Part shown: one piece after another, positions 3,882 to 39,101 of the stretch | Position numbering within the stretch: the stretch's first letter is position 1 | How the letters are laid out: each line of letters opens with the position of its first letter | Assembly (NCBI GenBank): GCA_047631715.1 | Contig: JBLICC010000002.1 | Span: 1-41,412, forward strand | Length of the DNA stretch: 41,412 nt | Source: Alteromonas naphthalenivorans | Lineage (GTDB): Bacteria > Babelota > Babeliae > Babelales > CAIQNR01 | Reading direction: 5' to 3' | Notes under the pieces: model-generated | The model's input: only the letters and a program-made list of their open reading frames with translations | Told to the model about the DNA's origin: nothing | The model's database searches: none | Program-made: the position numbers and the translations under genes

Positions 3882-4658
3882 TTATACCAAAACAACTTCG
3901 CATGTCTTGTTTGCATTGTAGGCTTGAGCCTTAATTGTTTGGATAATATCTGCTGGCAAGTCTTGTGATATAATTAACGTCTTTAAATTAGGTAAATCTG
4001 CAAAAGCATTTTCCTCTACTTTTTCGATAGGATTATGAGAAAAATCTATAACCTCTAAATTTGACACCTTTCGATTAGCATCATCTTTTTCTGTACGAAT
4101 ATCAGCAAACATATTTCCCTGCAATCGCTTAATTTTATTATGCGCAAAACTAATATGATGCAACAATCTAAGATCATCTAATACATCTTCTTTAAGCGTT
4201 CGAATATCGTTATGGTCAAGCATAATACCCCACACACCAGTTAAATGCTTAAACGTATCATCTCTTAAATCGCGGATGTTATTATGCGACAAATAGATCC
4301 ATTGCAACGATTGCAAACTATCAAATGCATGCGGATAAATATGTTTAATTTTATTATGCGTAAGTTTTATAAATTCGACTTTAGTAATATCGTTAAACGT
4401 ATGCTTCTTAAGCTCTTTAATATGATTATGAGAAAAATCAATAATACGCACAGGCTCAGTCTTTTTATCGACAATAGGCTTTAAAAGCTTGCTTAAATCA
4501 TCAGGTAAATTTTTTATTTTTCTGTGTGTAATTTCTAGTATTTTTTGATTGCCTGATCCAGAAACAAAGCTCTGCAAGCGATTTGTGGTAAATTCAAAAT
4601 TCTTTGCCTGCATTGTGCCCAGTACTGTACACAGCAAGAGCATGGTGATTTTCTTCAT
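3882..4658 (-). CDS. Exported leucine-rich-repeat (LRR) protein
   Basis: 258 aa with a signal peptide (MKKITMLLLCTVLGTMQA). About 7 typical 24-residue LRRs (LxxLxLxxNxIxxLxxxxF), e.g. IDFSHNHIKELKKHTF and IYLSHNNIRDLRDDTF. AGGGGGA RBS. Confidence 0.8.
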   Translation of the reverse strand: MKKITMLLLCTVLGTMQAKNFEFTTNRLQSFVSGSGNQKILEITHRKIKNLPDDLSKLLKPIVDKKTEPVRIIDFSHNHIKELKKHTFNDITKVEFIKLTHNKIKHIYPHAFDSLQSLQWIYLSHNNIRDLRDDTFKHLTGVWGIMLDHNDIRTLKEDVLDDLRLLHHISFAHNKIKRLQGNMFADIRTEKDDANRKVSNLEVIDFSHNPIEKVEENAFADLPNLKTLIISQDLPADIIQTIKAQAYNANKTCEVVLV

Positions 4659-16551: not shown

Positions 16552-17961
16552 CTAATCAGATACCTCATCTGATCCAATCACCTCTCCATCCTTAATAGCT
16601 TTTTCGAATCGTTTTCCTAAGAAGAAGGCAACTCCAGACCATAGCACAACAATGCCAGTAAAGAAGATACCATGCACATTGCTGGTAACAGCTCCACCCA
16701 CACTTTTTGCTAAGATATTAAAGCTTGAGCCTGCTCCACGAGCTAATTTTTTACCAAACGTATCGATCCATGATTTTGATTTAAACTTCATATCTTTTAC
16801 GGTTGGAATATAAAGCGCTTCGGTTACCGGCTGATTAAATGCATAGTAAATAGCTCTGAGAGCTACAAATGCTATTATTAATGCTCCAGGAGACGGACTT
16901 AGCATCAAATATATAAGCAACGTCCCCATCACCACAGGCATTACCATAAGTGACAAACGTTCTCCTAAATAAGAGATAAGCACACGTGTTCCAAACAAAG
17001 AAATAACAAACCCTATAAAATGCGTATAAAAAACAACTTTAAACAAGAAACAACTTACTCCAGAAATGCTTCCACCTGCATCTTGAGCAATGCCCAAACG
17101 CATGTAGCTTAAAATAGCACTCAATACTTCGTAAAAGAAAACAGTACAAAAAATACCAAAAGCATAGGGATAACGTAGTAGTATCATTAGACCACTAAAA
17201 ATACCTGTTTCTTTTGTTCCTGATTTACTCTGTTTTTTTTCAAATTTATATGCAGCTTCATACCCATGCAAATATTGCCCAGGGACAGTCTTCATCATCA
17301 TATTAATAATAAAGGGAACTGCTAATAAAATTATAGATGATATAACAATTAAAAGTGCATGCAAACGTGTTTCATTTAACCCTACTGAATGACATTGACC
17401 TGAATGAGACAGCAAAAACCATGCTAATCCTGCAGACAGCATGCCGCCCAGCTTTGATATAGAAATAAGAATACCATAATTCTTTTTTGCAGAATCAGGA
17501 GTAGACACTGAGTTTAAGAATGCCCAGAACACGCCCACTACAAAGGATGAAAAGCTCTCGATATAAAAATAGTAAAACCAACCAAAGAACCAATAAGCAC
17601 TATATGGTTTAACTACTTCTGTACCAAGCCCACCATAACTAATAATAATGGCACAGAAAAAACCGAGAATACTATATACCCAAGCACAATAAGAAAGCAA
17701 CTGATAACGACGAACAGTATCAACTAACTTGGCATATAAAAGAACCAATGGAATAAGACCAAAAATCATGAATAATTTAGCATAAGGAATCGCTTCTTTT
17801 CCACCTACGATATTCATGAAGATAGAGTCTTTCAACTCTTTGATAATTGTATAGGAAGAAATAATTGCAAAAAAAGCAGCACTCAAAAAGAAAATCTTTA
17901 ATCGCTCTTTTTCTTCAATTTCCCACAAAGCTCTAAATGTTTGCATAAAACCTATGCGCAT
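16552..17961 (-). CDS. TLC/NTT-family nucleotide transporter (ATP/ADP-translocase family), paralogue 1
   Basis: 469 aa and polytopic. Family motifs: FWAFLNSVSTPDSAKKNYG and LYIPTVKDMKFKSKSWIDTFGKKLARGAGS (compare the Rickettsia/Chlamydia Tlc/Npt pattern LYIP...KYKAK..ID..G.R.GK). AAGGAT RBS. Confidence 0.8.
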   Translation of the reverse strand: MRIGFMQTFRALWEIEEKERLKIFFLSAAFFAIISSYTIIKELKDSIFMNIVGGKEAIPYAKLFMIFGLIPLVLLYAKLVDTVRRYQLLSYCAWVYSILGFFCAIIISYGGLGTEVVKPYSAYWFFGWFYYFYIESFSSFVVGVFWAFLNSVSTPDSAKKNYGILISISKLGGMLSAGLAWFLLSHSGQCHSVGLNETRLHALLIVISSIILLAVPFIINMMMKTVPGQYLHGYEAAYKFEKKQSKSGTKETGIFSGLMILLRYPYAFGIFCTVFFYEVLSAILSYMRLGIAQDAGGSISGVSCFLFKVVFYTHFIGFVISLFGTRVLISYLGERLSLMVMPVVMGTLLIYLMLSPSPGALIIAFVALRAIYYAFNQPVTEALYIPTVKDMKFKSKSWIDTFGKKLARGAGSSFNILAKSVGGAVTSNVHGIFFTGIVVLWSGVAFFLGKRFEKAIKDGEVIGSDEVSD

Positions 17962-18001
17962 CTTAATCCTTTATAGATTTATAACAACTCACATACTACA
18001 A

Positions 18002-18032
18002 CAAAAAAAGCCCTCTAGAAGACTAGAAGGCT
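18002..18032 (-). terminator. Intrinsic terminator after NTT paralogue 2
   Basis: Minus strand: AGCCTTCTAGtcttCTAGAGGGCT followed by TTTTTTT. Confidence 0.6.
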
Positions 18033-18103
18033 AAAATTTTATACGTCACGTATATTGGACGCTCTAAGCGATTTTTTATTATTTTTATATATGTCGTTCT
18101 TTC

Positions 18104-19435
18104 TCAACATATCTGACGATCCTCTTCAATTGCTTTTTTGTGCATATCTGCCACAAATAAAGCTGAAACTATCCACACCCCTACAAGTCCCAGGCAAATA
18201 CCTGAGCTTACCACTACAAAGAACGATTGTAGCATAGGACGGAGCATATGAACAGAGGAACCCACACTTTTTGACAACCTAGAACCAAAACTATCTATCC
18301 AAGCTTTAGCTTTATACTTAGATTCTCGTGTTGTAGGAATATATAATTGCTCTTTAGCCGGCTGATTTAACGCGTAATTAAGCCCTTTTATAGTGACAAC
18401 AACCGTAAGAGCTACCCATAGCTCTGGCATCCACCACACAGCCAATACACCTGCACCCATAAGCATAGGTAGAAGCAATAATGTACGTGATAAGCCCAAT
18501 GCTCTTCCAATGGCTCCTGCACCTAATAATAAACTTATAAGCGCTACACCATTAGCACATATTGCATATTTAAAGAAAAACTCTTGCATAGCTGCACCAT
18601 TGTCTAGCACTTCTGCCGCAAGAATCTTCATATGCAGTTCAAGAACCGTTCCTACAATTTCGTATAAACTAACAATCGCTACAATACCAAGTAAATATGG
18701 TTGAGAAAAAATAAGTTTAATACCTTCAAAAAAACTAGGTGATGATTTTTTGTATGCAGCAGTTTTTTTATCTGAATGAAACCCTACCAATTCAGACTTT
18801 GGAGTCATTTTCATAAAATGATAAATTAAATATCCAATAATCAACATTCCAAGTGCCCCCATCCTAATAATAGGAATCGGACCAAAAGAGTTACTCATAG
18901 TATAACCAAGTAGCGGTCCAAGTACTCCACCAAACTGAGCACCCATTGCGATAATACCAAACCCTTGCTTTGCAGAATCGGGCGTAGATGTATCAGCAAC
19001 AAATGACCAAAACAATGCAACAATAAGTGAGCCAAAACTTTCTACAAACGCATACCAAAGCCATCCTATTGTACGACCTCCATGCGCCACTGTATTTGGC
19101 AACCCGATAAAAGGGTCAGACAACGCGTACGCAAATAATAATGCACCTACTGCATACACAGAACAGATCACATAAAACATTCTGTGACGGGCAAACATAT
19201 CTACCAATTTACCATAGAGCATAAGCAACGGAAATAGAAAACAAAGAGAAAATACTTTTGCATACGCAAGCCATTGCTTGCCAACAACATGTATAAAGAC
19301 GGTGTCTTTGAGTGGATTGATTAACCAGTAGACACCAATAGTAAAAGCAAAGATGAGTGCGAGTCGTATAAACTTCAAACACTCATCTTTGCTTTTGAAT
19401 TTTCCCCACAATATTTGAGCGAGGGATTGTAACAT
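18104..19435 (-). CDS. TLC/NTT-family nucleotide transporter, paralogue 2
   Basis: 443 aa. Motifs FWSFVADTSTPDSAKQGFG and LYIPTTRESKYKAKAWIDSFGSRLSKSVGS. Closest in-window relative is paralogue 4 (shared C-terminal ...KAIE.DR..C). Confidence 0.8.
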   Translation of the reverse strand: MLQSLAQILWGKFKSKDECLKFIRLALIFAFTIGVYWLINPLKDTVFIHVVGKQWLAYAKVFSLCFLFPLLMLYGKLVDMFARHRMFYVICSVYAVGALLFAYALSDPFIGLPNTVAHGGRTIGWLWYAFVESFGSLIVALFWSFVADTSTPDSAKQGFGIIAMGAQFGGVLGPLLGYTMSNSFGPIPIIRMGALGMLIIGYLIYHFMKMTPKSELVGFHSDKKTAAYKKSSPSFFEGIKLIFSQPYLLGIVAIVSLYEIVGTVLELHMKILAAEVLDNGAAMQEFFFKYAICANGVALISLLLGAGAIGRALGLSRTLLLLPMLMGAGVLAVWWMPELWVALTVVVTIKGLNYALNQPAKEQLYIPTTRESKYKAKAWIDSFGSRLSKSVGSSVHMLRPMLQSFFVVVSSGICLGLVGVWIVSALFVADMHKKAIEEDRQIC

Positions 19436-19604
19436 GGATGGTTCCTTATAAAAAAGTTACTCTGTCCATGTTACTGTACCACGTTTACTTAAAAAGAATA
19501 TCTCTAAAAGTTTTTTATTTTTTTCAAAAAAAAAGAGCCATTCCAAGTGGGTCAATATTTAGACCATCACAATAGAATGACTCAATTAGTATTTGTATAC
19601 TATT

Positions 19605-21005
19605 TTACTCGATGATTTCGCCGTCACGAACTAGTTGTGCATTTTTAATACCAACGTATATAGCAACTAACAGCCATACACAAATAACACCAAGACTAAT
19701 TAAGGTACCTGTTGTCATTAAACCTGCAATACTTGCTGCAACATTACCAGAAACAATTAATGCTCCACCAATATTTGCACCAGCCATTTTACCTGCACGG
19801 CCACCAACCATATCAACAAGACCTTTTGCTTTAAACTTAGCGTCTTTTGAAGTTGGAATGTACATCATTTCTTTTACAGGATTATTAACAGCATAAGAAA
19901 CAGCTGTAACAATCATCATTGCTCCAAAAGTTGCCCAGAAAAGATTTTCTGCTGTTGGACCAGTTAAGTAATAGAAGTAAATACCTGTTAAACATGCACC
20001 AAACATAATTGGATAGATTAACAAACAAACACGAAGACCATATTTTTTCATAGCATATGCTGTACCCAACAAAGCCATAAGCAATGAAAGTGAGTTTACA
20101 CACATTCCAAAGATACCTAAGAAACGAGCAAACTCAGCTTTAGGCATAATAACAGATGCTTGATATTTCATTTGCATATCAACAACAACTTTTGCTACTT
20201 CATAAAAAGTTGAAACTACAAATACACCCATTAAGTATGGTTGTGTTACAAGAAGTTTAAAACCTGCAAGTACATCTGGTTTACTTTTTTTCTTCTCTAC
20301 TTTACCACTGGTCATTTCTGAAGCTGGAACAGATTTCATCAAACTTTTAATAGTAAAAATCAAACCACAGATTCCCGCGATTGCAATAAAATACAATGGC
20401 CATGTTGGAAAGTTACCTTTGAAATACATTACTGAAGAAGCTGATATTGCACCAATTTGACCCAATACAATAACAAATGGAAAACCACGTTTTGCTTGAT
20501 CACTTGTTGCACTACTTACCGTGAATGACCAAAAAACAGCCATCATTAAAGAACCAAATGCTTCTGTTGCTAAGTACCCTAAAGAACCAGCAGCACCCAA
20601 TAGCATAGGACCAAATGAAAATGCTTTAATAGCTTCCACACCCAATGTATCAGCACTACAAAGCATTAATGCTACAAATGCAAAAACAGATGCAAAGAAA
20701 GTACCAATAACATAAAATAATTGTTGTTTTTCAAACATATCAATTAATTTTGTATAAACAGCTAATGCACCCATCACAACAAATGGCGAAATTGTTTTAA
20801 GTTTTGCAACCATTGTTGCACCATAACCAATAGGCCAGCCAAATTCTTCTGAAAAAGCAATTTTGTAAATAACATCGTCTTTTACCAAACGCAATAACCA
20901 ATAAGTACCAGCAGTAAACAAAAATGCAACCGCCAAATGCGTAAACTTATTTAACTCTTCTTTTTTTAAATCAGGATAAAAATACTGAATAATACCACTA
21001 AACAT
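19605..21005 (-). CDS. TLC/NTT-family nucleotide transporter, paralogue 3
   Basis: 466 aa. Motifs FWSFTVSSATSDQAKRGFP and MYIPTSKDAKFKAKGLVDMVGGRAGKMAGA. AAGAGG RBS. Confidence 0.8.
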   Translation of the reverse strand: MFSGIIQYFYPDLKKEELNKFTHLAVAFLFTAGTYWLLRLVKDDVIYKIAFSEEFGWPIGYGATMVAKLKTISPFVVMGALAVYTKLIDMFEKQQLFYVIGTFFASVFAFVALMLCSADTLGVEAIKAFSFGPMLLGAAGSLGYLATEAFGSLMMAVFWSFTVSSATSDQAKRGFPFVIVLGQIGAISASSVMYFKGNFPTWPLYFIAIAGICGLIFTIKSLMKSVPASEMTSGKVEKKKSKPDVLAGFKLLVTQPYLMGVFVVSTFYEVAKVVVDMQMKYQASVIMPKAEFARFLGIFGMCVNSLSLLMALLGTAYAMKKYGLRVCLLIYPIMFGACLTGIYFYYLTGPTAENLFWATFGAMMIVTAVSYAVNNPVKEMMYIPTSKDAKFKAKGLVDMVGGRAGKMAGANIGGALIVSGNVAASIAGLMTTGTLISLGVICVWLLVAIYVGIKNAQLVRDGEIIE

Positions 21006-21107
21006 ATATATACCTCTTATGTTAACTAATTATAGTGAAAACCATTTCACCTTAAAATTTTCCATACTACACCCTTTGTTATCTTGGCCGAAAAACTCCT
21101 TTCTTAT

Positions 21108-22451
21108 CTAACACACAATGCGATCTTGCTCAATAGCCTTGGTGTGTTCTTTTCCTATAAATAAAGCAGCCCAAAACCATACAAGAATTAATGCTGCAGA
21201 AAGCCCAAGACTCATCATGGTAAACGTTGCAACTCCCAAGATTGGTCGTAAGGTGTTGATTCCAGATGCGGTACCTTTTGAAAGGCGTATACCAAACATA
21301 TCGATCCAAGCTTTTGCTTTATACTTAGTATCTTTTGATGTTGGAATATATAATTGCTCTTTTGCTGGTTGATTTAATGAGTAATTTATACTCTTACACG
21401 CTACCATTACCATAAACGCAACTCCTAAAACAGGATTCATGTTAACAATAATAGCAGACGCTCCTACCACAACAGGCAATAATAAGAGTGTACGAGCAAG
21501 CCCTAATCTACGAGCTATTCCTTTTGACCCTAATAATACACTAAACACAGCAACTATATTAATACAAATTGCGTATGTAGTAAAAAAGTTAGTTAATGCA
21601 TCACCAGTATATTCTGCCTTTGCAAGCCATTTAAATTGAAAATCTATCATAACAATAACAACTTCATAAAATGCCACCATGGTAAAAATACCAAGCACAT
21701 AAGGACGCGTTGCTACCAAATATAAACCATCTAGAAATCCAGTTCTTGTTTTTTTACCTTTTTCTAAAGCATTCTTGCTTCCATCAAATCCTTTAAGCTG
21801 ATCGCGTGGAGTTGTAAGCATAAAATAATACACACCTACTGGAATACAACAAATACCAACCACACACAAGAGAATAGCTGATCCAGAAGAACTCATATTA
21901 ATAATTATTTTCCCCATAAGAGGAATAATAACACCACCAGTTTGAGCTCCAAATACAATGAGAGAATACCCTCTACGAGCAGATTCAGGAGTAGTAGTAT
22001 CAGCAACAAATGACCAGAAAAGAGCCACCATGGTTGAACCAAAGCTTTCTACAAATAGGTAAAACACCCATCCTAAATAACGATGTGGATCTTCAACAGT
22101 ATTCGAAATGCCCATTTGAGGATCAAAAATAAAGAAGGCAAAACCAATTGAACATAAAGCATAAAAGCCCGAATAACCATATAAAAGCTTATGTCGTGGA
22201 TACTTATCAACTAAATATGAATATATCATCACTGCACATGCCGTAACCAAAATAGAGAGCATTTTTGCCCATGGTTGATATTCTCGACCCACCATAGTCA
22301 AGAAAATGCTGTCTTTAAGTGGCCTAAAGAGCCAATAGACTCCAATGGTAAGCCCAAAAAGAACTGCTAAAATAGAAAATTTCTTTTTTTCTTCCGGACT
22401 TTCAAAGCCGGTAAAAATAGAAGTAAAAAGACTCATAATACTGCTAGCCAC
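21108..22451 (-). CDS. TLC/NTT-family nucleotide transporter, paralogue 4
   Basis: 447 aa. Motifs FWSFVADTTTPESARRGYS and LYIPTSKDTKYKAKAWIDMFGIRLSKGTAS. The GTG start at 22451 is preceded by AAGAGGGG; an alternative ATG lies at 22436. Confidence 0.8.
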   Translation of the reverse strand: MASSIMSLFTSIFTGFESPEEKKKFSILAVLFGLTIGVYWLFRPLKDSIFLTMVGREYQPWAKMLSILVTACAVMIYSYLVDKYPRHKLLYGYSGFYALCSIGFAFFIFDPQMGISNTVEDPHRYLGWVFYLFVESFGSTMVALFWSFVADTTTPESARRGYSLIVFGAQTGGVIIPLMGKIIINMSSSGSAILLCVVGICCIPVGVYYFMLTTPRDQLKGFDGSKNALEKGKKTRTGFLDGLYLVATRPYVLGIFTMVAFYEVVIVMIDFQFKWLAKAEYTGDALTNFFTTYAICINIVAVFSVLLGSKGIARRLGLARTLLLLPVVVGASAIIVNMNPVLGVAFMVMVACKSINYSLNQPAKEQLYIPTSKDTKYKAKAWIDMFGIRLSKGTASGINTLRPILGVATFTMMSLGLSAALILVWFWAALFIGKEHTKAIEQDRIVC

Positions 22452-31274: not shown

Positions 31275-33134
31275 CTAAGAACGCTTTGCTATAGTTAAAA
31301 GTGCTTTTTCAATCGCTGGTATTGCAGACTGAGCAATTGCTTTTCCAAGCGCAGAAAGACCATCAACATTTTTAGGAGAATAATCAAAGTTAGCTGTTTT
31401 GCATTCTCCTTTAAAACATTCCTTAAGACTAAAGCCCTTTGGACCTTTTCCTTTTGGATAATCAAGAAGAGAAAGATTAATAATAATTGGACCCTGTTGG
31501 CCTTTAGAATATTCATCAAATACAGTTACCCACTGTGATTTACGTTGTTGATACTTAGGAGATTTTTTGATAATAGGAAAAGGAATATTTCTATTATTAG
31601 CCAATTCTTCTGCTTTTACAAGAGCATCTGAACCCTCTATAATATTATTCGACAAATCAAATGCAATAATAATATCAACATTGCGATCTTTCTTAAGTAA
31701 TGGTAAAAATGGCAAATTACCAGCAAGACCAGCATCTGCAACGGTCCAATAACTTTGATTAGCAGGAATTACAGGATTTGGTTTAACCGCATAATTCGGT
31801 AATTCTGCAGGAAAAACACGAGTATTTTTACCAGGCAAGAAAACTTTAAAAGGAGCACTCCCTAATACCACAAAACTATAAATTTTTGCGGCTAAACCTT
31901 TTACACCAGAAGCATTCTTTTGAAAATCAAAAAACATACGCATACCATCTGCTGCTGATGCATTAAATGCAGATCCAAAAATACCCATAAAGGTTCCTGC
32001 TTCTAATTCAGGAGCAAAATTCTTACTTTCAAAATATGTATGCTTTTTGAACGACGATCCCCCTTTACCGATAAAAGTTCTTCCTGATGCCCAAGTTGGA
32101 ACATATGCTCCTGTTAAAGTCTTCTTATCATAATAATCAAACCCAATTTCATAAGGGGTGACTTCTGCCCAAAGATAAGGGGTTAACTTTGTTTTTTGAG
32201 CCTTAGCCTTAGAGGAAGAAAGAGGCGAAACCATAGTTCCAATAGGCATAGGAAAGGTAGAACAATTACTTTGCTCTATATAATTCTTTGTTTGCGAAAT
32301 AAGCATTTGTTGACGAGACTGAAAAGGGAAATTTGTATCTTTTGGATACTTTTTACGAATCTCCAAATCATCAAAAGCAGCAAATACTGTATGTGCAACT
32401 CTTGCCCCATAGATAGTCGGCAAACTTATTGGAACATTAAACAAAAAAGAACGTGTAATATTATCGTTAACTAATTGTGACTCATGAGGAGCATATTTAA
32501 ATTTCTTTTTAGATAGTTTTGATAAAGATCCTGCATATCTTTTATATCCATCCTTAATTGCCTCAACAGGAGCCCCTAGTGCTCGAGGAAAAGTAAACCA
32601 TGTAGACCCAGAAAGACAGCTTGCATAAGTAACACAATCTATAAATTTATTATCAGTAAAACCTTCATACATACCAAGCGTTCCAATCATTGCACGGTAT
32701 CCACCACCACTTGCACAAATTGCAATAGTTGGAGCTTTTTCACCCAATGCATCCGCTACTTTTTTTCCAAAGACTTGACCTAAAGATTTTTGCACATGAA
32801 CTAAACGCTTTTTTTGAAATTGCACTTCTTGATCACATAAACTTGCAGATGAACGAAGCCGTGCAACAGTTTTATTATTTTTTTTAACCTGGGTTTTTAC
32901 TATTAGATCTGTAGTTAGAGGAAAATTGTCAAAAAGTTTTTTTCTAATCTTCCTACAAGGCTTCACCAAACAATAGCCTTTCCTGAACTGACTTAATACT
33001 GAATGTAATTTAGTTGTAAATGTTGAGTGAGTGAAGCCCTGCACTGTATCAACGAATGAACTACCAGAAGTCAATTTTCCATGAAGCGTAATCATTGAAA
33101 AACACAAGATACCCATAACTATACTTTTCTTCAT
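31275..33134 (-). CDS. Exported eukaryote-type cytosolic phospholipase A2 / lysophospholipase family (PLA2_B catalytic domain) protein
   Basis: 619 aa with an N-terminal hydrophobic leader (MKKSIVMGILCFSMITLHG). The catalytic motifs match cPLA2-alpha closely. ICASGGGYRAMIGTLG matches GSGGGFRAM (oxyanion/Arg). DCVTYASCLSGSTWF matches DCATYVAGLSGSTWY (Ser nucleophile). VADAGLAGNLPFLPLLKKDRNVDIIIAFDLS matches VDSGLTFNLPYPLILRPQRGVDLIISFDFS (catalytic Asp). No C2 domain is present. Confidence 0.85.
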   Translation of the reverse strand: MKKSIVMGILCFSMITLHGKLTSGSSFVDTVQGFTHSTFTTKLHSVLSQFRKGYCLVKPCRKIRKKLFDNFPLTTDLIVKTQVKKNNKTVARLRSSASLCDQEVQFQKKRLVHVQKSLGQVFGKKVADALGEKAPTIAICASGGGYRAMIGTLGMYEGFTDNKFIDCVTYASCLSGSTWFTFPRALGAPVEAIKDGYKRYAGSLSKLSKKKFKYAPHESQLVNDNITRSFLFNVPISLPTIYGARVAHTVFAAFDDLEIRKKYPKDTNFPFQSRQQMLISQTKNYIEQSNCSTFPMPIGTMVSPLSSSKAKAQKTKLTPYLWAEVTPYEIGFDYYDKKTLTGAYVPTWASGRTFIGKGGSSFKKHTYFESKNFAPELEAGTFMGIFGSAFNASAADGMRMFFDFQKNASGVKGLAAKIYSFVVLGSAPFKVFLPGKNTRVFPAELPNYAVKPNPVIPANQSYWTVADAGLAGNLPFLPLLKKDRNVDIIIAFDLSNNIIEGSDALVKAEELANNRNIPFPIIKKSPKYQQRKSQWVTVFDEYSKGQQGPIIINLSLLDYPKGKGPKGFSLKECFKGECKTANFDYSPKNVDGLSALGKAIAQSAIPAIEKALLTIAKRS

Positions 33135-33226: not shown

Positions 33227-34735
33227 TCAGTCTTTTTTCTTAAGTGTTGGAAATAAGATAACGTCTTTAATAGAAGTCGTATTGGTTAAAATCATGGCGA
33301 GACGATCGATACCAATGCCACAGCCAACTGTTGGAGGCAATCCGTATTCAAGCGCACGAACATAATCAGCATCAAAATGCATAGCTTCGTTATCACCTGC
33401 TGCATGCGTAGCTGCTTGTTCTTTAAAACGCTCTTCTTGATCAAACGGTTCGTTTAACTCATTAAAGCAGTTAGAAAGTTCCATGCCACCCATAAACAGT
33501 TCAAATCTTGATACAAAATTTGGGTTGTTAACATCACGTTTAGAAAGTGGAGAAACTTCTACCGGAAAGTTAGTAATATATGTTGGTTGAATCAATTGAG
33601 TTTCTGCAACTTCTTCGAACAACAAAAATAACTTCTGCCCATAAGATGCATCTTTAACTTGAAGCTTTACTCCATGTTTTTTTATTTCAGCATCAATCTT
33701 ATCGATAGAAATATCATCTTCTTTGTAGTTACCATGTTTAAGCACAGCTTGCTTAATACTCATACGATCAAAAGCTTTACCAAAATCAAGCGTGTGTTCA
33801 CCAAACGGAATTTGATCAATGCCACACGATTCTTTAACCACTTTTTTGAGCATATCTTCTACAAAGTTCATCATAAAATTATAGTCTTGATGAGCCATGT
33901 AGAATTCGAGCATAGTAAACTCTGGATTGTGACGTGTAGAAATACCTTCGTTTCTAAAACTACGGTTAATCTCATACACACGTTCAAAACCACCTACTAC
34001 CAAACGCTTTAAGTACAGCTCTGGAGCAATTCTCAAATAAAGATCTGAGTGCAATGCATTATGATGCGTTACAAAGGGACGAGCAACCGCACCACCCGGA
34101 ATAGAATGAAGCATCGGTGTTTCTACTTCCATAAACTCATGGTCTTCAAGATAATGACGTAATCCACTAATAAGCTTTGAACGAACTACAAATTTGTTAC
34201 GACTTTCTTCGTTAGAAATTAAGTCGAGATAGCGCTGACGATATCTAATTTCTACATCAGCAATGCCATGAAATTTTTCTGGTAGTGGATGTAAGCATTT
34301 AGAAAGCAGTGTAGCTTCTGTTGCTTTTAACGTAATTTCACCCGTTCTAGTTTTGAATACTGCTCCCTTAACCCACACAATGTCACCTAAATCTACATTA
34401 TGCTGTAAAAGATCAAACGTTTGTTCGCCAATCACATCTTTCTTAAAATATACTTGTAACTGGCCAGCTCTATCTTGCAACTTTGCAAAGGCGCTTTTAC
34501 CATGCCAACGCAATGCTACAATTCTGCCTGCAACAGTATATTCTTGGTCTGAATCTTCTTTAAATTCATCAAGAACCTGTTTAGAAGTGCTAGAAACTTC
34601 TTTAAATTCAGGCCATGGCTCTATGCCCTGGTCGCGTAATTTTTTAACTTTATCAACCCGAATATGATGCTCTTCTGATGCATCTGGGTTAATGGTATGT
34701 GTATCTTCTACGTTTAGGTTTTTTTCTTTGGTCAT
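33227..34735 (-). CDS. lysS: Lysine--tRNA ligase, class II
   Basis: 502 aa. N-terminal OB anticodon-binding domain (VAGRIVALRWHGKSAFAKLQDRAGQLQVY) and class II motifs (FRNEGISTRHNPEFTMLE, GCGIGIDRLAMIL). Confidence 0.95.
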   Translation of the reverse strand: MTKEKNLNVEDTHTINPDASEEHHIRVDKVKKLRDQGIEPWPEFKEVSSTSKQVLDEFKEDSDQEYTVAGRIVALRWHGKSAFAKLQDRAGQLQVYFKKDVIGEQTFDLLQHNVDLGDIVWVKGAVFKTRTGEITLKATEATLLSKCLHPLPEKFHGIADVEIRYRQRYLDLISNEESRNKFVVRSKLISGLRHYLEDHEFMEVETPMLHSIPGGAVARPFVTHHNALHSDLYLRIAPELYLKRLVVGGFERVYEINRSFRNEGISTRHNPEFTMLEFYMAHQDYNFMMNFVEDMLKKVVKESCGIDQIPFGEHTLDFGKAFDRMSIKQAVLKHGNYKEDDISIDKIDAEIKKHGVKLQVKDASYGQKLFLLFEEVAETQLIQPTYITNFPVEVSPLSKRDVNNPNFVSRFELFMGGMELSNCFNELNEPFDQEERFKEQAATHAAGDNEAMHFDADYVRALEYGLPPTVGCGIGIDRLAMILTNTTSIKDVILFPTLKKKD

Positions 34736-34818: not shown

Positions 34819-34950
34819 TCAATAATAAGGCATATAACAATTAGCTGGTACTTGTGTTTTAATTTGATCTTTTTGTTCTTGATTAAGTTGATTATTTTTA
34901 AGATATAACTGTTCAAGACTATTAAATCCTGCAAGTGCTTGTGCCTTCAT
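34819..34950 (-). pseudogene. C-terminal remnant of a further LRR-family gene (43 codons)
   Basis: The reverse strand reads MKAQALAGFNSLEQLYLKNNQLNQEQKDQIKTQVPANCYMPYY*. This parallels the last repeat and tail of the 37092..38381 product (AQVFAGLNSLKDLNLGFNQITTQEKQNIIAVIPDCDIEF*). It lies 19 nt downstream of the 696-aa LRR gene and has no upstream repeat array. Confidence 0.6.
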
Positions 34951-34969: not shown

Positions 34970-37060
34970 TTAAAATTTCACATAAGCCTGTGGTAGTCCT
35001 GCTTTAATATCTTTTTGTTCTTGATCAGAAAATGGGAAAAAGTTATTTTTCAAACAAAGACCTTCAAAGTCATATTCAGGTCTCATTTGAACAAAATTTT
35101 CAATCAATGATTCCTTAGTATCACAAATATAATTACTACCAAGATCAACTTTTTTTAATAATTTTAATTTCGTAAAAGCTTTATGTGTCTTTGCAATAAG
35201 ATTATTATTCAACTGAACTCTTTCAAGATTATTATTCCCGTCAAAAACTCCATCAATATTAATAATATTGTTATCATCAAGGCGTAATTCTCGCAAATCC
35301 ACTAGTTCATCAAAAGATTTTTGAATATCACGAATTCTATTATCATTAAGAGTAATATTTCTAAGACTACTTAATCCGTTAAAAATTTCTTTAATATCGC
35401 AAATCTTATTATTATCAAGGTGAAGATATCGCAAATTACCCAATCCATTAAATGCTCCTACCTGTATATCTACAATCTTATTATCATTAAGATAGATCGC
35501 TGCGAGCTTGCTTAAACCCTCAAAAAATCCAGCCTTAATATCAGTAATTTCATTCCTATAAAGATGCAGGCTCTTAAGATTACTTAAACCCTTAAAAAAT
35601 CCCTCAATATCAGTAATTCCATTATTATTAAGATTAAGTTTTTGCAACGCCCCCAATCCATTAAGCGTTCCTACCTGTATATCTGCTATCTTATTACAAT
35701 TAAGTTCAAGCTCTCGTAAAGCACCCAATCCATTAAACGCTCCTACCTGTATATCTGCTATCTTATTATAATTAAGTTCAAGCTCTCGTAAAGCACCCAA
35801 TCCATTAAACGCTCCTACCTGTATATTTGTTATCTTATTATCTTTAAGTTTAAGTTTTTGTAAAATAGACAATCCATTAAACGCTTCTACCTGTATATCC
35901 GCTATCTTATTGCTACCAAGATAAAGCTCTCGTAAAGCACCCAATCGATTAAACACATTTCTCTTAATATCGGTAATTTCATTACTATTAAGACAAAGAA
36001 ATTCAAGATTGCTTAAATCCTCAAAAGATCCAACCTCAATGTCAGTAATTTTATTACCATTAAGACTAAGAGATCGCAAATGACCTAATCCATTAAATGC
36101 TCCTGCTTGTATACCTGTTATCTGATTGTTATCAAATGTAAGCTCCTGTAAAGCACCCAATCCATTAAATGTTCCTACCTGTATATCTACAATCTTATTA
36201 TTACGAAGATTAATTGTTTCTAAATTGCTCAGCCCCTTAAAAGCTTTCTTAATATCTACTATCTTATTACCATTAAGCTCAATTGCCTTTACTTCTTTTA
36301 TACCTTTTATGGCGTTCAGATCATCTAGACTTGTAATATTTAAATTTTTAAGATTAAGTGTTTTATCATAATTGCTAATTTTAGGAATCTTATTTGCATC
36401 AATTAAGTTTCTAATTGACGTTGAAAGCATCTTCCTCTTTTTATAATTATAAATTTTATCAGTATCATTCTTATCTAAAGAAAATAGTGCTGTATTATGA
36501 AGATCATATTTATTATATTTAATTTTCATTTGCCTGAGTATATCCAGCACATAAGCATGATGATGCACATTAGATTCACTATTATTTGGATTATTCAACC
36601 ATGCAATATATAATTTTTCTGCATATTTTTCTGGCAATAAAATTTTTAAAGTATGAAATAAATTTGTTAAAGTAATGCCTTGAAAGCTTAACTCTTCTTT
36701 AGTCACTGGTAATATATAATTGGGATCTTCATAAAGATTAATTGCATGCTTTAAATAATTTGAATGAACTGTAGGCAACGGTATTGGGTCTTCTTGAGTT
36801 ACCTGACCTTCTTCTAAATCTTCTACCATATTCTTTAAGAAAGAAAATAAATCTAAAGGAATTTGCCTTACAATACCATCTGAAGTTTTAACCCATAGTT
36901 TTGATGAAGACTCTACATCTATTACATCAGCTGCAGAATCTGTTTGTTCAACTCGTGGTCGCTTTGCCGCACGTTCTTCTTCTAATATATCTGCTGCTGG
37001 TGCTGCTGCCTGCAAACCAATCATCGAAAATAAACTTAAAGCTCCTAATAATTTCTTCAT
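34970..37060 (-). CDS. Exported Skp1-like (POZ) domain - LRR fusion protein, long paralogue
   Basis: 696 aa with signal peptide MKKLLGALSLFSMIGLQAAAP. The segment KLWVKTSDGIVRQIPLDLFSFLKNMVEDLEEGQVTQEDPIPLPTVHSNYLKHAINLYE...ITLTNLFHTLKILLPEKY parallels the Skp1 N-terminal domain (IKLQSSDGEIFEVD...IKTMLEDLG...[21 protein letters not shown]...TLFELILAANYLDIKGLL). About 18 x 24-residue LRRs follow. GAGAGG RBS. Confidence 0.8.
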   Translation of the reverse strand: MKKLLGALSLFSMIGLQAAAPAADILEEERAAKRPRVEQTDSAADVIDVESSSKLWVKTSDGIVRQIPLDLFSFLKNMVEDLEEGQVTQEDPIPLPTVHSNYLKHAINLYEDPNYILPVTKEELSFQGITLTNLFHTLKILLPEKYAEKLYIAWLNNPNNSESNVHHHAYVLDILRQMKIKYNKYDLHNTALFSLDKNDTDKIYNYKKRKMLSTSIRNLIDANKIPKISNYDKTLNLKNLNITSLDDLNAIKGIKEVKAIELNGNKIVDIKKAFKGLSNLETINLRNNKIVDIQVGTFNGLGALQELTFDNNQITGIQAGAFNGLGHLRSLSLNGNKITDIEVGSFEDLSNLEFLCLNSNEITDIKRNVFNRLGALRELYLGSNKIADIQVEAFNGLSILQKLKLKDNKITNIQVGAFNGLGALRELELNYNKIADIQVGAFNGLGALRELELNCNKIADIQVGTLNGLGALQKLNLNNNGITDIEGFFKGLSNLKSLHLYRNEITDIKAGFFEGLSKLAAIYLNDNKIVDIQVGAFNGLGNLRYLHLDNNKICDIKEIFNGLSSLRNITLNDNRIRDIQKSFDELVDLRELRLDDNNIINIDGVFDGNNNLERVQLNNNLIAKTHKAFTKLKLLKKVDLGSNYICDTKESLIENFVQMRPEYDFEGLCLKNNFFPFSDQEQKDIKAGLPQAYVKF
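35670..35813. repeat. Near-perfect 2 x 72-bp tandem repeat within the LRR array (71/72 identical)
   Basis: Units 35670..35741 and 35742..35813 differ at one base. They encode LRELELN(Y/C)NKIADIQVGAFNGLGA. Flanking 72-bp units are progressively more divergent. Confidence 0.9.
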
Positions 37061-37091
37061 TTGAACCTCTCATTTATTAATTATTAATTCA

Positions 37092-38381
37092 TTAAAATTC
37101 AATATCACAATCTGGAATCACTGCTATAATATTTTGTTTTTCTTGCGTCGTTATCTGGTTAAAACCAAGATTTAGATCTTTAAGACTATTAAGTCCTGCA
37201 AATACTTGTGCATTTAACGTCATAATAATATTATTATTAAGAGTTAAATTATTAAGATTACTAAGTCCTTCAAATATTTTTTCATCTAATTTCTCAATCT
37301 TATTATTATGAAGATGTAACCAATTAAGATCTTTAAGCTCTGTAAATACTTGTTCATTTAATTTCGTAATCTCATTATTACAAAGACTTAACTCCATAAG
37401 ATTATTAAGTCCTGCAAATGCTTGCTCACCTAAGGTCGCTATCTGGTTATTATTAAGATTTAAATACTCAAGATTATTAAGTCCTTCAAATATTTTTGAT
37501 GGTATTATTGTTATTTGATTATTATCAAGACTTAAATAATTAAGATTATCAAGTTCTGCAAATGCTTGTTCGCCTAATGTCGCTATCTGGTTATTATTAA
37601 GATGTAAATCCCTAAGATCATTAAGTTCTGCAAATGCTTTTGGTATTATTGTTATTTGATTATTCGATAAATCAAGTTCTCTAATACTATCAGCAAGATT
37701 TGATATCCCTTCTAAAGAACTAATACTTTTGCCTGATAGATCAAGTTTATTATCTACAATATTAATCTTATGCGCATCGATCAAGTTCTGAATAGAAACA
37801 TGCTTATGTTGACGAAGTGCATGATTATTAATGTTATTAGTATCTTCTTTCTTTAACGCAATTTTCGTATTGAGTAGTCCAAATGGCAAATTCTCCATGC
37901 CTAATCCCATTTGGTTAAAAACTATAAAAGCAGGAGCATGATGGTGCACTTCTTCTTGCATATTTTGAGGATGATTTAACCATGCAGTATAAAACTTTTT
38001 GATTAGGTCTTTTGCATCAAGAAAATCCAGAGCTTTTAGTATTTCTGGTAGCGTAACGTTTTGTTCTTTTTGTTCTTTATCTGTTACTGGTAATTGATAG
38101 TGAGAGTCATGATATACATTAATAGCATGTTTAAGAGGTACTTCATTAACTTCAGGCATTGGAATTGGGTGTTCATCTTCAATTCCTAAATCCTCAACCA
38201 GTCTATTGATGGTCTCAAATATGTTATCTTCAAGATTTTCTGTGCTAAAGGGTAAATGAACTATTTTTCTATCACTAGATACTAATTCGACTACTGAATC
38301 TTTATTAAGAATATCAGCCGCTGCACCGTGTAAACCAATCATCGAAAATAAACTTAAAGCTACTAATAATTTCTTATTCAT
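37092..38381 (-). CDS. Exported Skp1-like (POZ) domain - LRR fusion protein, short paralogue
   Basis: From ATG 38381 (GGAGG RBS): MNKKLLVALSLFSMIGLHGAAADIL signal peptide. VVELVSSDRKIVHLPF...INRLVEDLGIEDEHPIPMPEVNEVPLKHAINVYH...VTLPEILKALDFLDAKDLI matches the Skp1 pattern (V.L.SSD...F........I..M.ED.G.....PIPLPNV....L..V........TLFELILAANYLDIK.LL). About 8 LRRs follow (LDLSNNQITIIPKAFAELNDLRDLHLNNNQIATLGEQAF...). Confidence 0.8.
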   Translation of the reverse strand: MNKKLLVALSLFSMIGLHGAAADILNKDSVVELVSSDRKIVHLPFSTENLEDNIFETINRLVEDLGIEDEHPIPMPEVNEVPLKHAINVYHDSHYQLPVTDKEQKEQNVTLPEILKALDFLDAKDLIKKFYTAWLNHPQNMQEEVHHHAPAFIVFNQMGLGMENLPFGLLNTKIALKKEDTNNINNHALRQHKHVSIQNLIDAHKINIVDNKLDLSGKSISSLEGISNLADSIRELDLSNNQITIIPKAFAELNDLRDLHLNNNQIATLGEQAFAELDNLNYLSLDNNQITIIPSKIFEGLNNLEYLNLNNNQIATLGEQAFAGLNNLMELSLCNNEITKLNEQVFTELKDLNWLHLHNNKIEKLDEKIFEGLSNLNNLTLNNNIIMTLNAQVFAGLNSLKDLNLGFNQITTQEKQNIIAVIPDCDIEF

Positions 38382-38423
38382 TTTAACCTCCATTAAAATA
38401 TCATATTTTTATAACTAAACTTA

Positions 38424-38452
38424 AGTATAGATATTAATTTCTATTTGTCAAA
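38424..38452 (-). promoter_or_regulatory. Near-consensus sigma70-type promoter upstream of the short Skp1-LRR gene
   Basis: Minus strand: TTGACA (38452..38447), a 17-nt spacer, then TATACT (38429..38424). It lies about 40 nt upstream of the ATG at 38381. Confidence 0.5.
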
Positions 38453-38489: not shown

Positions 38490-39101
38490 TTAGCCAATAA
38501 TTTCTTTATAATTTTGCTCAACCTGTTCCCAATTAACGGTATTCCACCAAGCATCGATATAAGCGGGACGACGATTAACGTATTGCAGGTAATAAGCGTG
38601 CTCCCATACATCTAAGCCTATAATAGGATGAAGACCATTAGAAAGAGGGGTATCTTGATTTGCGGTAGAAGAAACAACAAGCTTGCCATTGTTATCTACA
38701 GAGAGCCAAGCCCATCCACTGCCAAAACGAGATTTTGCTGCAGTATTAAGTTGATCTCTAAAAACATCAAAGCTCCCAAAGACTTCTTTAATTTTATCGC
38801 CAACTGGACCAGTCGGTTCCCCGCCGCCCTTAGGCTGCATGATATTCCAAAAATCTGTGTGGTTTTTTACTCCACCGCCATGATTACGCACGGCAGTACG
38901 AATATCTTCTGGAACAGAGTCTAAATCTTTTAAAAGTTCAACCAATGGTTTATCAAACAGTTCAGGATGTTTTTGTAGTGCTGCGTTAAGACCATTCACA
39001 TATGCCTGTTGATGCTTACCATGATGCAGCTCCATGATTTGTGCTTCGATGTAAGGTTCAAGCGCGCCGTATTCATAGGGAAGTTTTGGAAGTTTGTACA
39101 T
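38490..39101 (-). CDS. Superoxide dismutase, Fe/Mn family
   Basis: 203 aa. [18 protein letters not shown]...[10 protein letters not shown]...[19 protein letters not shown], the canonical Fe/Mn-SOD metal ligand motifs. I do not call the metal specificity. Confidence 0.95.

Follow-up and report, generated by a model that had tools for sequence, protein, structure and literature searches.

Leader-bearing leucine-rich repeat proteins with Skp1-like heads in a Babeliales genome: candidate single-chain substrate receptors for host cullin-1

To our knowledge, every cullin-RING ligase hijacker reported to date from bacteria or viruses copies the exchangeable receptor parts of these enzymes, namely the F-box, the BC-box or SOCS-box, the BTB domain, and the U-box or RING finger. 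The PEX1 proteins of Protochlamydia, in which a canonical BTB domain is joined to leucine-rich repeats (LRRs), are putative type III effectors that have been expanded in tandem (Domman et al. 2014, PMC4209131), and in Neochlamydia a common linker and LRRs are found with either F-box or RING/U-box heads (Domman et al., PMC4209131). BTB-Kelch proteins have been called single-chain analogues of Skp1/F-box pairs (PMC3597819). No bacterial Skp1-like effector, PF03931 domain in bacteria or Skp1_POZ + LRR architecture was found in the literature searched. Here we describe two neighbouring genes, located between sodA (38490-39101) and lysS (33227-34735) in a 41,412-nucleotide stretch of contig JBLICC010000002.1 (the window), whose products each consist of a leader, a ~130-residue head homologous to eukaryotic Skp1, a short linker and LRRs. 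The proteins are predicted, probably, to plug bacterial target-binding modules into the protein-degradation machinery of the host. The two genes, the second of which lies 31 nt downstream of the first, and their heads are as follows (ORF, open reading frame).

37092 to 38381, minus strand: coding sequence of the short paralogue, 429 amino acids from ATG 38381 (ORF list).
34970 to 37060, minus strand: coding sequence of the long paralogue, 696 amino acids (ORF list), with GAGAGG ahead of the ATG.
37899 to 38297, minus strand: head of the short paralogue, homologous to Skp1 (ORF residues 33-165), with strands S1-S3 and helices corresponding to about Skp1 H1-H7.
36518 to 36901, minus strand: head of the long paralogue, homologous to Skp1 (residues 54-181), placed by phmmer against the PDB and by motif alignment.

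The head is a true, divergent homologue of eukaryotic Skp1, with homology that begins at strand S1 and extends through helix H7. In phmmer searches of the PDB, the N-terminal 186 residues of the short paralogue matched Skp1 chains only (best E = 7e-5), and the best matches of the long N terminus were also to Skp1 (E = 6e-3). A 3-sequence profile matched PDB Skp1 at E = 1.8e-7, and a 16-sequence family profile did so at E = 3.2e-8, covering Skp1 residues 3-102; behind the best Skp1 came the plant and yeast proteins and, further down, Elongin C (E = 0.14). Alignment to a small Skp1 alignment by hhalign gave a probability of 98.4% (E = 6.5e-15) and placed family columns 39-166 on human Skp1 residues 2-142. 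An AlphaFold2 model of short ORF residues 30-233, made from a 9-sequence alignment, had a mean predicted local distance difference test score (pLDDT) of 88.5 and a predicted template modelling score (pTM) of 0.85. When the head model was compared to the PDB by Foldseek, the top ~40 matches were all Skp1 chains, followed by Elongin C, and in the viral structure library (BFVD) the best matches were giant-virus Skp1 proteins, at a weak best E of 2e-3. Skp1_POZ (PF03931) was the only recurrent Pfam family and was matched by 7 of 16 family members (best E = 3.2e-9). P0010, which is 46% identical to the short paralogue, scored 35.7 bits against a cutoff of 21.9 and also matched LRR_8. The BTB family (PF00651) was matched neither by the window proteins at E <= 1 nor by the 16 family members at E <= 0.1.

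A preliminary description of this DNA had proposed a Skp1 N-terminal, POZ-fold domain on the basis of a list of shared motifs. The profile, hhalign, AlphaFold2 and Foldseek results all lead to Skp1, and the motif list was upheld and extended by the motif-level alignment given below. The N-terminal regions of the short and long paralogues are 38-43% identical to one another, the value varying with the alignment.

Skp1 IKLQSSDGEIFEV against family V.V.TSDG....L
Skp1 TIKTMLEDLG against family TI.NLVEDLG
Skp1 ..LKKVI segment against family.PIPLP.VDS.HL.HAI
Skp1 TLFELILAANYLDIKGLL against family TLE.LLKALNFLDAK..L
Skp1 LDVTCKTVANMIKG against family EKFY.AWLN.P.N
Skp1 TPEEIRKTFNIKN against family ....IL.QMGLD

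Helices H5-H7 form the core of the F-box-binding surface in Skp1-Skp2 structures. The C-terminal F-box-binding helices of Skp1 had gone unrecognised in the preliminary description. H8 is indeed absent, but equivalents of H5, H6 and H7 are present, at low similarity in the hhalign alignment, which ends at Skp1 residue 142, and also in the AlphaFold2 model. Since the homology extends through H7, part of the F-box-binding region is kept. No motif in the family is better conserved than 'Y.AWLN.P.N', the H6-equivalent. PF01466, the C-terminal F-box-binding domain of Skp1, gave no Pfam match at E <= 1 in the window proteins, and for this reason the whole protein is not termed 'a Skp1'. The H7 equivalent is followed by a family-specific segment.

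37800 to 37898, minus strand: linker of the short paralogue, ORF residues 166-198, between the head and the LRR cassette.

This linker of ~35 residues holds a conserved 'L...D...I.NY..R', after which VSIQNLID..KIP opens the LRR solenoid. In the models it forms short strand and helix turns at roughly the spacing of LRRs, with no long H8-like helix. A cryptic F-box in the linker was considered and rejected, as it gave no Pfam F-box match and the modelled turns are unlike a three-helix bundle. No F-box or F-box-like Pfam match was obtained from the window proteins or from 16 family members, in agreement with the earlier proposal of an F-box-less head fused to LRRs. The AlphaFold2 model of the full-length short paralogue is a single confident body (pLDDT 90.7, pTM 0.83), which suggests that the head is rigidly joined to the LRR cassette. 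From the models, we infer that the linker, together with the first turns of the LRRs, may fill in cis the groove that takes an F-box in Skp1.

37092 to 37799, minus strand: LRR cassette of the short paralogue, with the cap VSIQNLID..KI, 8 canonical 24-residue LRRs and the C-terminal cap QEKQNIIAVIPDCDIEF.
34970 to 36421, minus strand: LRR cassette of the long paralogue, with the cap TSIRNLIDANKIP, 17-18 LRRs and the C-terminal cap EQKDIKAGLPQAYVKF.

The cassettes matched Pfam LRR_8 at E = 7e-41 (short) and E = 2e-94 (long). The repeat period is 23-24 residues, or 72 nt in the DNA, and the modelled strands recur regularly every 24 residues, as in the typical LRR class. The register gives 8 and 17-18 repeats, consistent with the 8 and about 18 typical 24-residue LRRs counted previously. 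Several adjacent repeats of the long gene are nearly identical, which indicates recent internal duplication. Nearly all family members end in Q[KE]..I...VP..C.[VI].[FWY] with its terminal aromatic residue (37092-37145 and 34970-35020 in the window), and this conserved C terminus was modelled as a cap helix plus a final strand. Foldseek matches for the LRRs were LGR4, LRRTM2 and Leptospira LIC proteins. A further leader-bearing LRR protein, of 258 amino acids, is encoded in the window at 3882-4658 on the minus strand, adjoining a tolQ/exbB-type gene; it has neither a Skp1-like or RING head nor the SIQNLID cap.

The best evidence for a role in ubiquitin ligation is a swap of heads. At two independent loci, a gene for a RING-H2 finger joined to LRRs lies immediately upstream of family members: on a JGI metagenome contig (L002, 5911-6981) and in the sequencing run of the window's own Logan contig (L003, 277-930). 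Both genes encode a leader of the family type, and both pass the zf-RING_2 cutoff of 27.3 bits, with scores of 41 and 36. From [IV]SIQDL[IL][DN] to the C-terminal cap, the RING-LRR cassette matches that of the family with 38% identity over 234 amino acids (E = 2e-31). Judged by sequence, one LRR cassette is carried on either a RING or a Skp1-like head. The known job of the RING finger is to recruit ubiquitin-charged E2. Because RING heads sit on the same LRR cassette, the simplest reading, by analogy, is that the Skp1-like head likewise links an LRR-bound target to the ubiquitination machinery.

The segments ahead of the heads are as follows (NLS, nuclear localisation signal).

38319 to 38381, minus strand: Sec-type leader of the short paralogue, MNKKLLVALSLFSMIGLHGAA, read from the sequence.
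37001 to 37060, minus strand: Sec-type leader of the long paralogue, MKKLLGALSLFSMIGLQAAA, read from the sequence.
36944 to 36970, minus strand: AAKRPRVEQ, an NLS-like stretch of the long paralogue and a match to the minimal pattern K-[KR]-x-[KR].

By eye, the leaders open with a basic n-region, continue into a hydrophobic core and close with a c-region of small residues, and they are stereotyped across the family, MKKLL..LSL....GLQAA being found on nearly all members. The two leaders share ALSLFSMIGL, and they had already been described as near-identical; the DNA of the leader and Shine-Dalgarno region agrees at 46 of 47 nt. Because this contrasts with only ~40% protein identity between the heads, gene conversion or a strong constraint on the 5' end is suggested. 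The lack of a leader in P0012 and P0014 was traced to fragmented gene calls, since the intact copies on their contig have leaders. The same leader type was also seen on unrelated small proteins that relatives encode at the syntenic position (L005 8699-9172 and L007 5929-6366). The NLS-like AAKRPRVEQ noted in the preliminary description is indeed present, but it is of little weight as a localisation signal because KRPR is a minimal motif and is paralleled in a single other member, P0016, by a similar AKRIQVEQ.

Babeliales are obligate intracellular parasites of amoebae and flagellates. The window is assigned to Babeliales (Dependentiae/TM6) from its lysyl-tRNA synthetase (LysRS), the named near relatives of which are all from Candidatus Babeliales bacterium (65-73% identity), with metagenomic relatives of up to 92%. 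Four tandem paralogues of TLC-type ATP/ADP transporters (16552-22451, minus strand) are consistent with an energy-parasitic intracellular lifestyle; the window also encodes Tol/TonB components and housekeeping genes. For Babela massiliensis, the type II system was the sole secretion system detected, and signal peptides were reported on the majority of its 126 ankyrin proteins, whose secretion into the amoeba is presumed (PMC4378268). Signal peptides were reported on 44% of the coding sequences of Chromulinavorax and on 78% of its ankyrin proteins (PMC6561590). By analogy, a Sec leader on a eukaryote-like protein would be the norm for presumed effectors of Dependentiae, and the leader is therefore no argument for a periplasmic function.

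The account that we favour, tentatively and as something a little short of an even call, is that the proteins are secreted single-chain substrate receptors in which the Skp1-like head sits on host cullin-1 (Cul1) and the LRRs present a target. Export would proceed first by Sec and next through the type II system, the route of host-directed proteins in Babeliales. Once in the cytoplasm of the host, each protein would act as a single-chain, F-box-less substrate receptor, its head using the S3 PxP strand and the H5 [ND][FY]L helix to dock on the N-terminal repeat of cullin-1. The F-box groove of Skp1 would be occupied in cis by the linker and by the degenerate turns at the start of the LRRs, the LRR horseshoe would hold a host target, and host Cul1-Rbx1-E2 would ubiquitinate that target. 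The RING-LRR siblings would reach E2 directly.

A number of observations weigh against this account. At the proposed cullin interface the picture is mixed. Of the B3 'PxPN' through which Skp1 reportedly contacts Cul1 (PMC1257465), most members retain PxP, which speaks for the account, but the Asn survives in one only. In H5, the Cul1-contact residues N108 and Y109 of Skp1 correspond to [ND][FY] in most members but to K-I in the long paralogue. The two window proteins score below the Skp1_POZ cutoff of 21.9 bits (17.1 for the short N terminus and 13.7, E = 0.072, for the long). Their typical 24-residue LRRs best match extracellular receptors and Leptospira surface proteins rather than FBXL-type LRRs. 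Members consisting only of leader, head and linker exist (P0024-P0026 and P0031), so that the head may be functional by itself. Lastly, the Sec leader argues for export to the periplasm only, and delivery to the host cytosol is assumed by analogy with other Babeliales.

The single-chain receptor account was weighed against others that explain part of the same evidence. That the proteins are decoys or inhibitors, with a head that caps Cul1 or traps host F-box proteins and LRRs that only localise or stabilise it, is unlikely: the homology covers H5-H7, the core of the F-box-binding surface, but H8 is absent, and the conserved H6-equivalent and linker, together with the compact model (pTM 0.83-0.85), suggest that the groove is filled in cis. 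Maintenance of the head alone is evident from the LRR-less members, one of which occupies the sodA-lysS slot of a close relative, whereas the LRR cassette shared with the RING-LRR proteins argues for the recruitment of targets.

A function unrelated to ubiquitin is also considered improbable. On this view the proteins would be LRR adhesins of the periplasm or cell surface that bind envelope ligands of the host or of bacteria from outside the host cytosol, and the POZ-fold head would only oligomerise them or act as a scaffold. A RING-H2 finger, for which we know of no role outside ubiquitin-type ligation, is carried by the sister proteins, and this stands against the resemblance of the LRRs to extracellular, typical LRRs and to the Leptospira LIC surface proteins, as well as against the presence in the window of the separate, head-less LRR protein with a leader (3882-4658). 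Pfam does call the Skp1 N-terminal domain a 'tetramerisation domain', but the head is Skp1-like rather than a generic BTB domain (Elongin C was reached only at E = 0.14 and PF00651 not at all), and the Skp1 signatures, PxP and the H5 motif, are kept. Although the leader guarantees no more than periplasmic export, other eukaryote-like proteins of the phylum with such leaders are presumed to be host-directed (PMC4378268, PMC6561590).

A chance or compositional resemblance to Skp1, or contamination by host DNA, is effectively refuted, because despite the sub-gathering Pfam scores of both window proteins and the AT-rich region (28-30% GC), sequence-profile, profile-profile and structure searches independently single out Skp1. 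In addition, the genes are flanked by bacterial sodA and lysS, are preceded by Shine-Dalgarno sequences and lack introns, and further bacterial contigs carry relatives of them.

The start of the short gene is most likely ATG 38381, as had been stated before. The mechanically called ORF (37092-38393, 433 amino acids) begins at 38393 and spans its own Shine-Dalgarno sequence: GGAGGT is located 5 nt 5' of ATG 38381, within an in-frame 'ATG GAG GTT AAA', and the internal start is therefore preferred. Many relatives carry a comparable spurious 'ME[VI]xM' extension at the N terminus. The GC content of 28-30% in the gene-pair region compares with ~35% for the window. Two further features flank the pair.

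38424 to 38451, minus strand: promoter-like site TTGACA-16-TATACT upstream of the short paralogue, an 11/12 match to the consensus.
34819 to 34950, minus strand: relic ORF of 43 amino acids with a last LRR and the C-terminal cap motif, …LYLKNNQLNQEQKDQIKTQVPANC… / …FNSLEQLYLKNNQLNQEQKDQIKTQVPANC… (motif scan, ORF list).

The promoter-like site is a consensus match only, such sites being no more numerous in the region than expected from shuffled sequence. The relic ORF, located between the long paralogue and lysS and also called as a gene on Logan contig L001, is probably the 3' remnant of a third family gene.

The extent of the family emerged when the head profile was run exhaustively, by HMMER, against 1.84 billion representative proteins; word-indexed protein searches gave only 1-7 relatives. 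Among the 32 matches, ~25 were family members, and the others were Skp1-like proteins only, including eukaryote-type Skp1 at E~3e-4. The family of this head is thus small and rare, with ~25 representatives, and it evolves quickly. Pattern-based scans for family loci in genome and metagenome contigs confirmed no relative, and exact-sequence contig look-ups with the short paralogue and P0010 gave no match. The usual layout is a leader, head, linker, SIQNLID cap, a variable number of LRRs and the C-terminal cap. Only a few members have been deposited, and these carry the annotation 'hypothetical protein' or, at JGI and because of their LRRs, 'protein phosphatase 1 regulatory subunit 7'. At least three members (P0010, P0016 and P0023) belong to an NCBI metagenome-assembled genome named 'Alteromonas naphthalenivorans' (locus tags ACJAZS_), a name that is probably a mislabel because the family and its leader are of Babeliales type. 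One 778-residue protein (P0034; NCBI/ENA/Logan, 336-kb contig) has an N-terminal hydrophobic segment, three tandem Skp1_POZ domains (108 bits) with 'AANYLDI'-type helices and no LRRs; by sequence, it may represent another non-eukaryotic Skp1-like family.

At least nine tandem family copies were found within 16 kb on one contig of 30% GC (L008 1-16269, ENA ERZ25071824), several of them split or truncated by either low-coverage assembly frameshifts or pseudogenisation. The flanks are syntenic in relatives whose LysRS is 88-92% identical to that of the window, but their sodA-lysS slot holds other small leader-bearing genes, among them, in the one case given above, a family member that lacks LRRs. 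Between lysS and DJ-1/PfpI, a second slot encodes a 619-residue PLA2_B-like (cPLA2/lysophospholipase-type) protein in the window (31275-33134, minus strand), and in relatives it holds ~7 C2H2 zinc-finger proteins (L005 11530-21208) or an ankyrin protein (L007 8073-8624). Both sides of lysS are occupied by variable islands of accessory genes. The turnover of the family follows the birth-and-death pattern expected of host-interaction genes, and the expansions reported for Parachlamydiaceae form a comparable pattern (PMC4209131).

If the single-chain receptor account is true, the invariant adaptor Skp1 has been copied and fused to the bacterium's own target-binding domain, which would be a distinct entry into SCF (Skp1-cullin-F-box) ligases and a compact natural template for F-box-free targeted degradation. 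The Skp1-like/RING swap is an independent counterpart of the F-box/RING swap reported in Neochlamydia and would make a clear example of convergent effector design in amoeba-associated bacteria. It is possible, though a little less likely than the single-chain receptor account itself, that these are the first bacterial Skp1 mimics, acting as F-box-independent receptors that would dock directly on Cul1 of a protist host and reprogramme its SCF-type ubiquitination, and forming one half of a modular Babeliales toolkit of Skp1-like and RING LRR proteins. The family also offers a handle on host manipulation by uncultured Dependentiae.

With eukaryotic Skp1, the head shares the SSDG strand, the MLEDLG helix, the P-x-P strand and the 'L..ANYLDIK' helix (here 'L..ALNFLDAK'). 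It differs in its ~25% identity and in lacking H8, a PF01466 match and the acidic loop, and the proteins differ in being bacterial, in having a Sec leader and in carrying LRRs by covalent fusion rather than through a separate F-box partner. Giant-virus Skp1 homologues (Pandoravirus, Pithovirus, Cedratvirus), known here by annotation only (Skp1 or Skp1-POZ, 137-254 amino acids), are similar in that a Skp1 fold is encoded by parasites of amoebae. The Cul3 BTB adaptors (BTB-Kelch, SPOP) resemble the proposed arrangement in that a single polypeptide combines the roles of cullin adaptor and substrate receptor, but they are Cul3-specific, form a BTB dimer and carry a 3-box/BACK linker with Kelch or MATH domains.

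Among bacterial proteins, the F-box effectors need host Skp1 as a bridge, whereas here the bridge itself appears to be mimicked and no F-box is detectable. NEX1a/NEX1b are alike in having one LRR cassette with alternative heads, and in joining a eukaryote-like, E3-related head to repeats (PMC4209131). Protochlamydia PEX1 resembles these proteins in its POZ-fold head with C-terminal LRRs in one chain, in its origin from an intracellular bacterium associated with amoebae, in tandem duplication and in the presumed hijack of a cullin-RING ligase. The PEX1 head is reported to be a canonical BTB domain, with Cul3 as the expected partner, whereas the head described here matches Skp1_POZ and never BTB; the phylum is also different, and a Sec/type II leader takes the place of type III secretion. 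Membership of the Protochlamydia BTB-LRR family was rejected, as no BTB match was obtained and none of the 32 proteins from the profile search has a canonical BTB head, all LRR-bearing matches having the motifs of the present family. The preliminary description had set the architecture apart from the known bacterial F-box and U-box effectors. The F-box is lacking here, but the novelty of the architecture is tempered because PEX1, a BTB-LRR protein, is the closest architectural and conceptual precedent (PMC4209131). The two genes thus belong to a known kind, the eukaryote-like modules of protist-associated bacteria for the presumed hijack of cullin-RING ligases, and the Skp1-like head joined to LRRs is a new variant of it.

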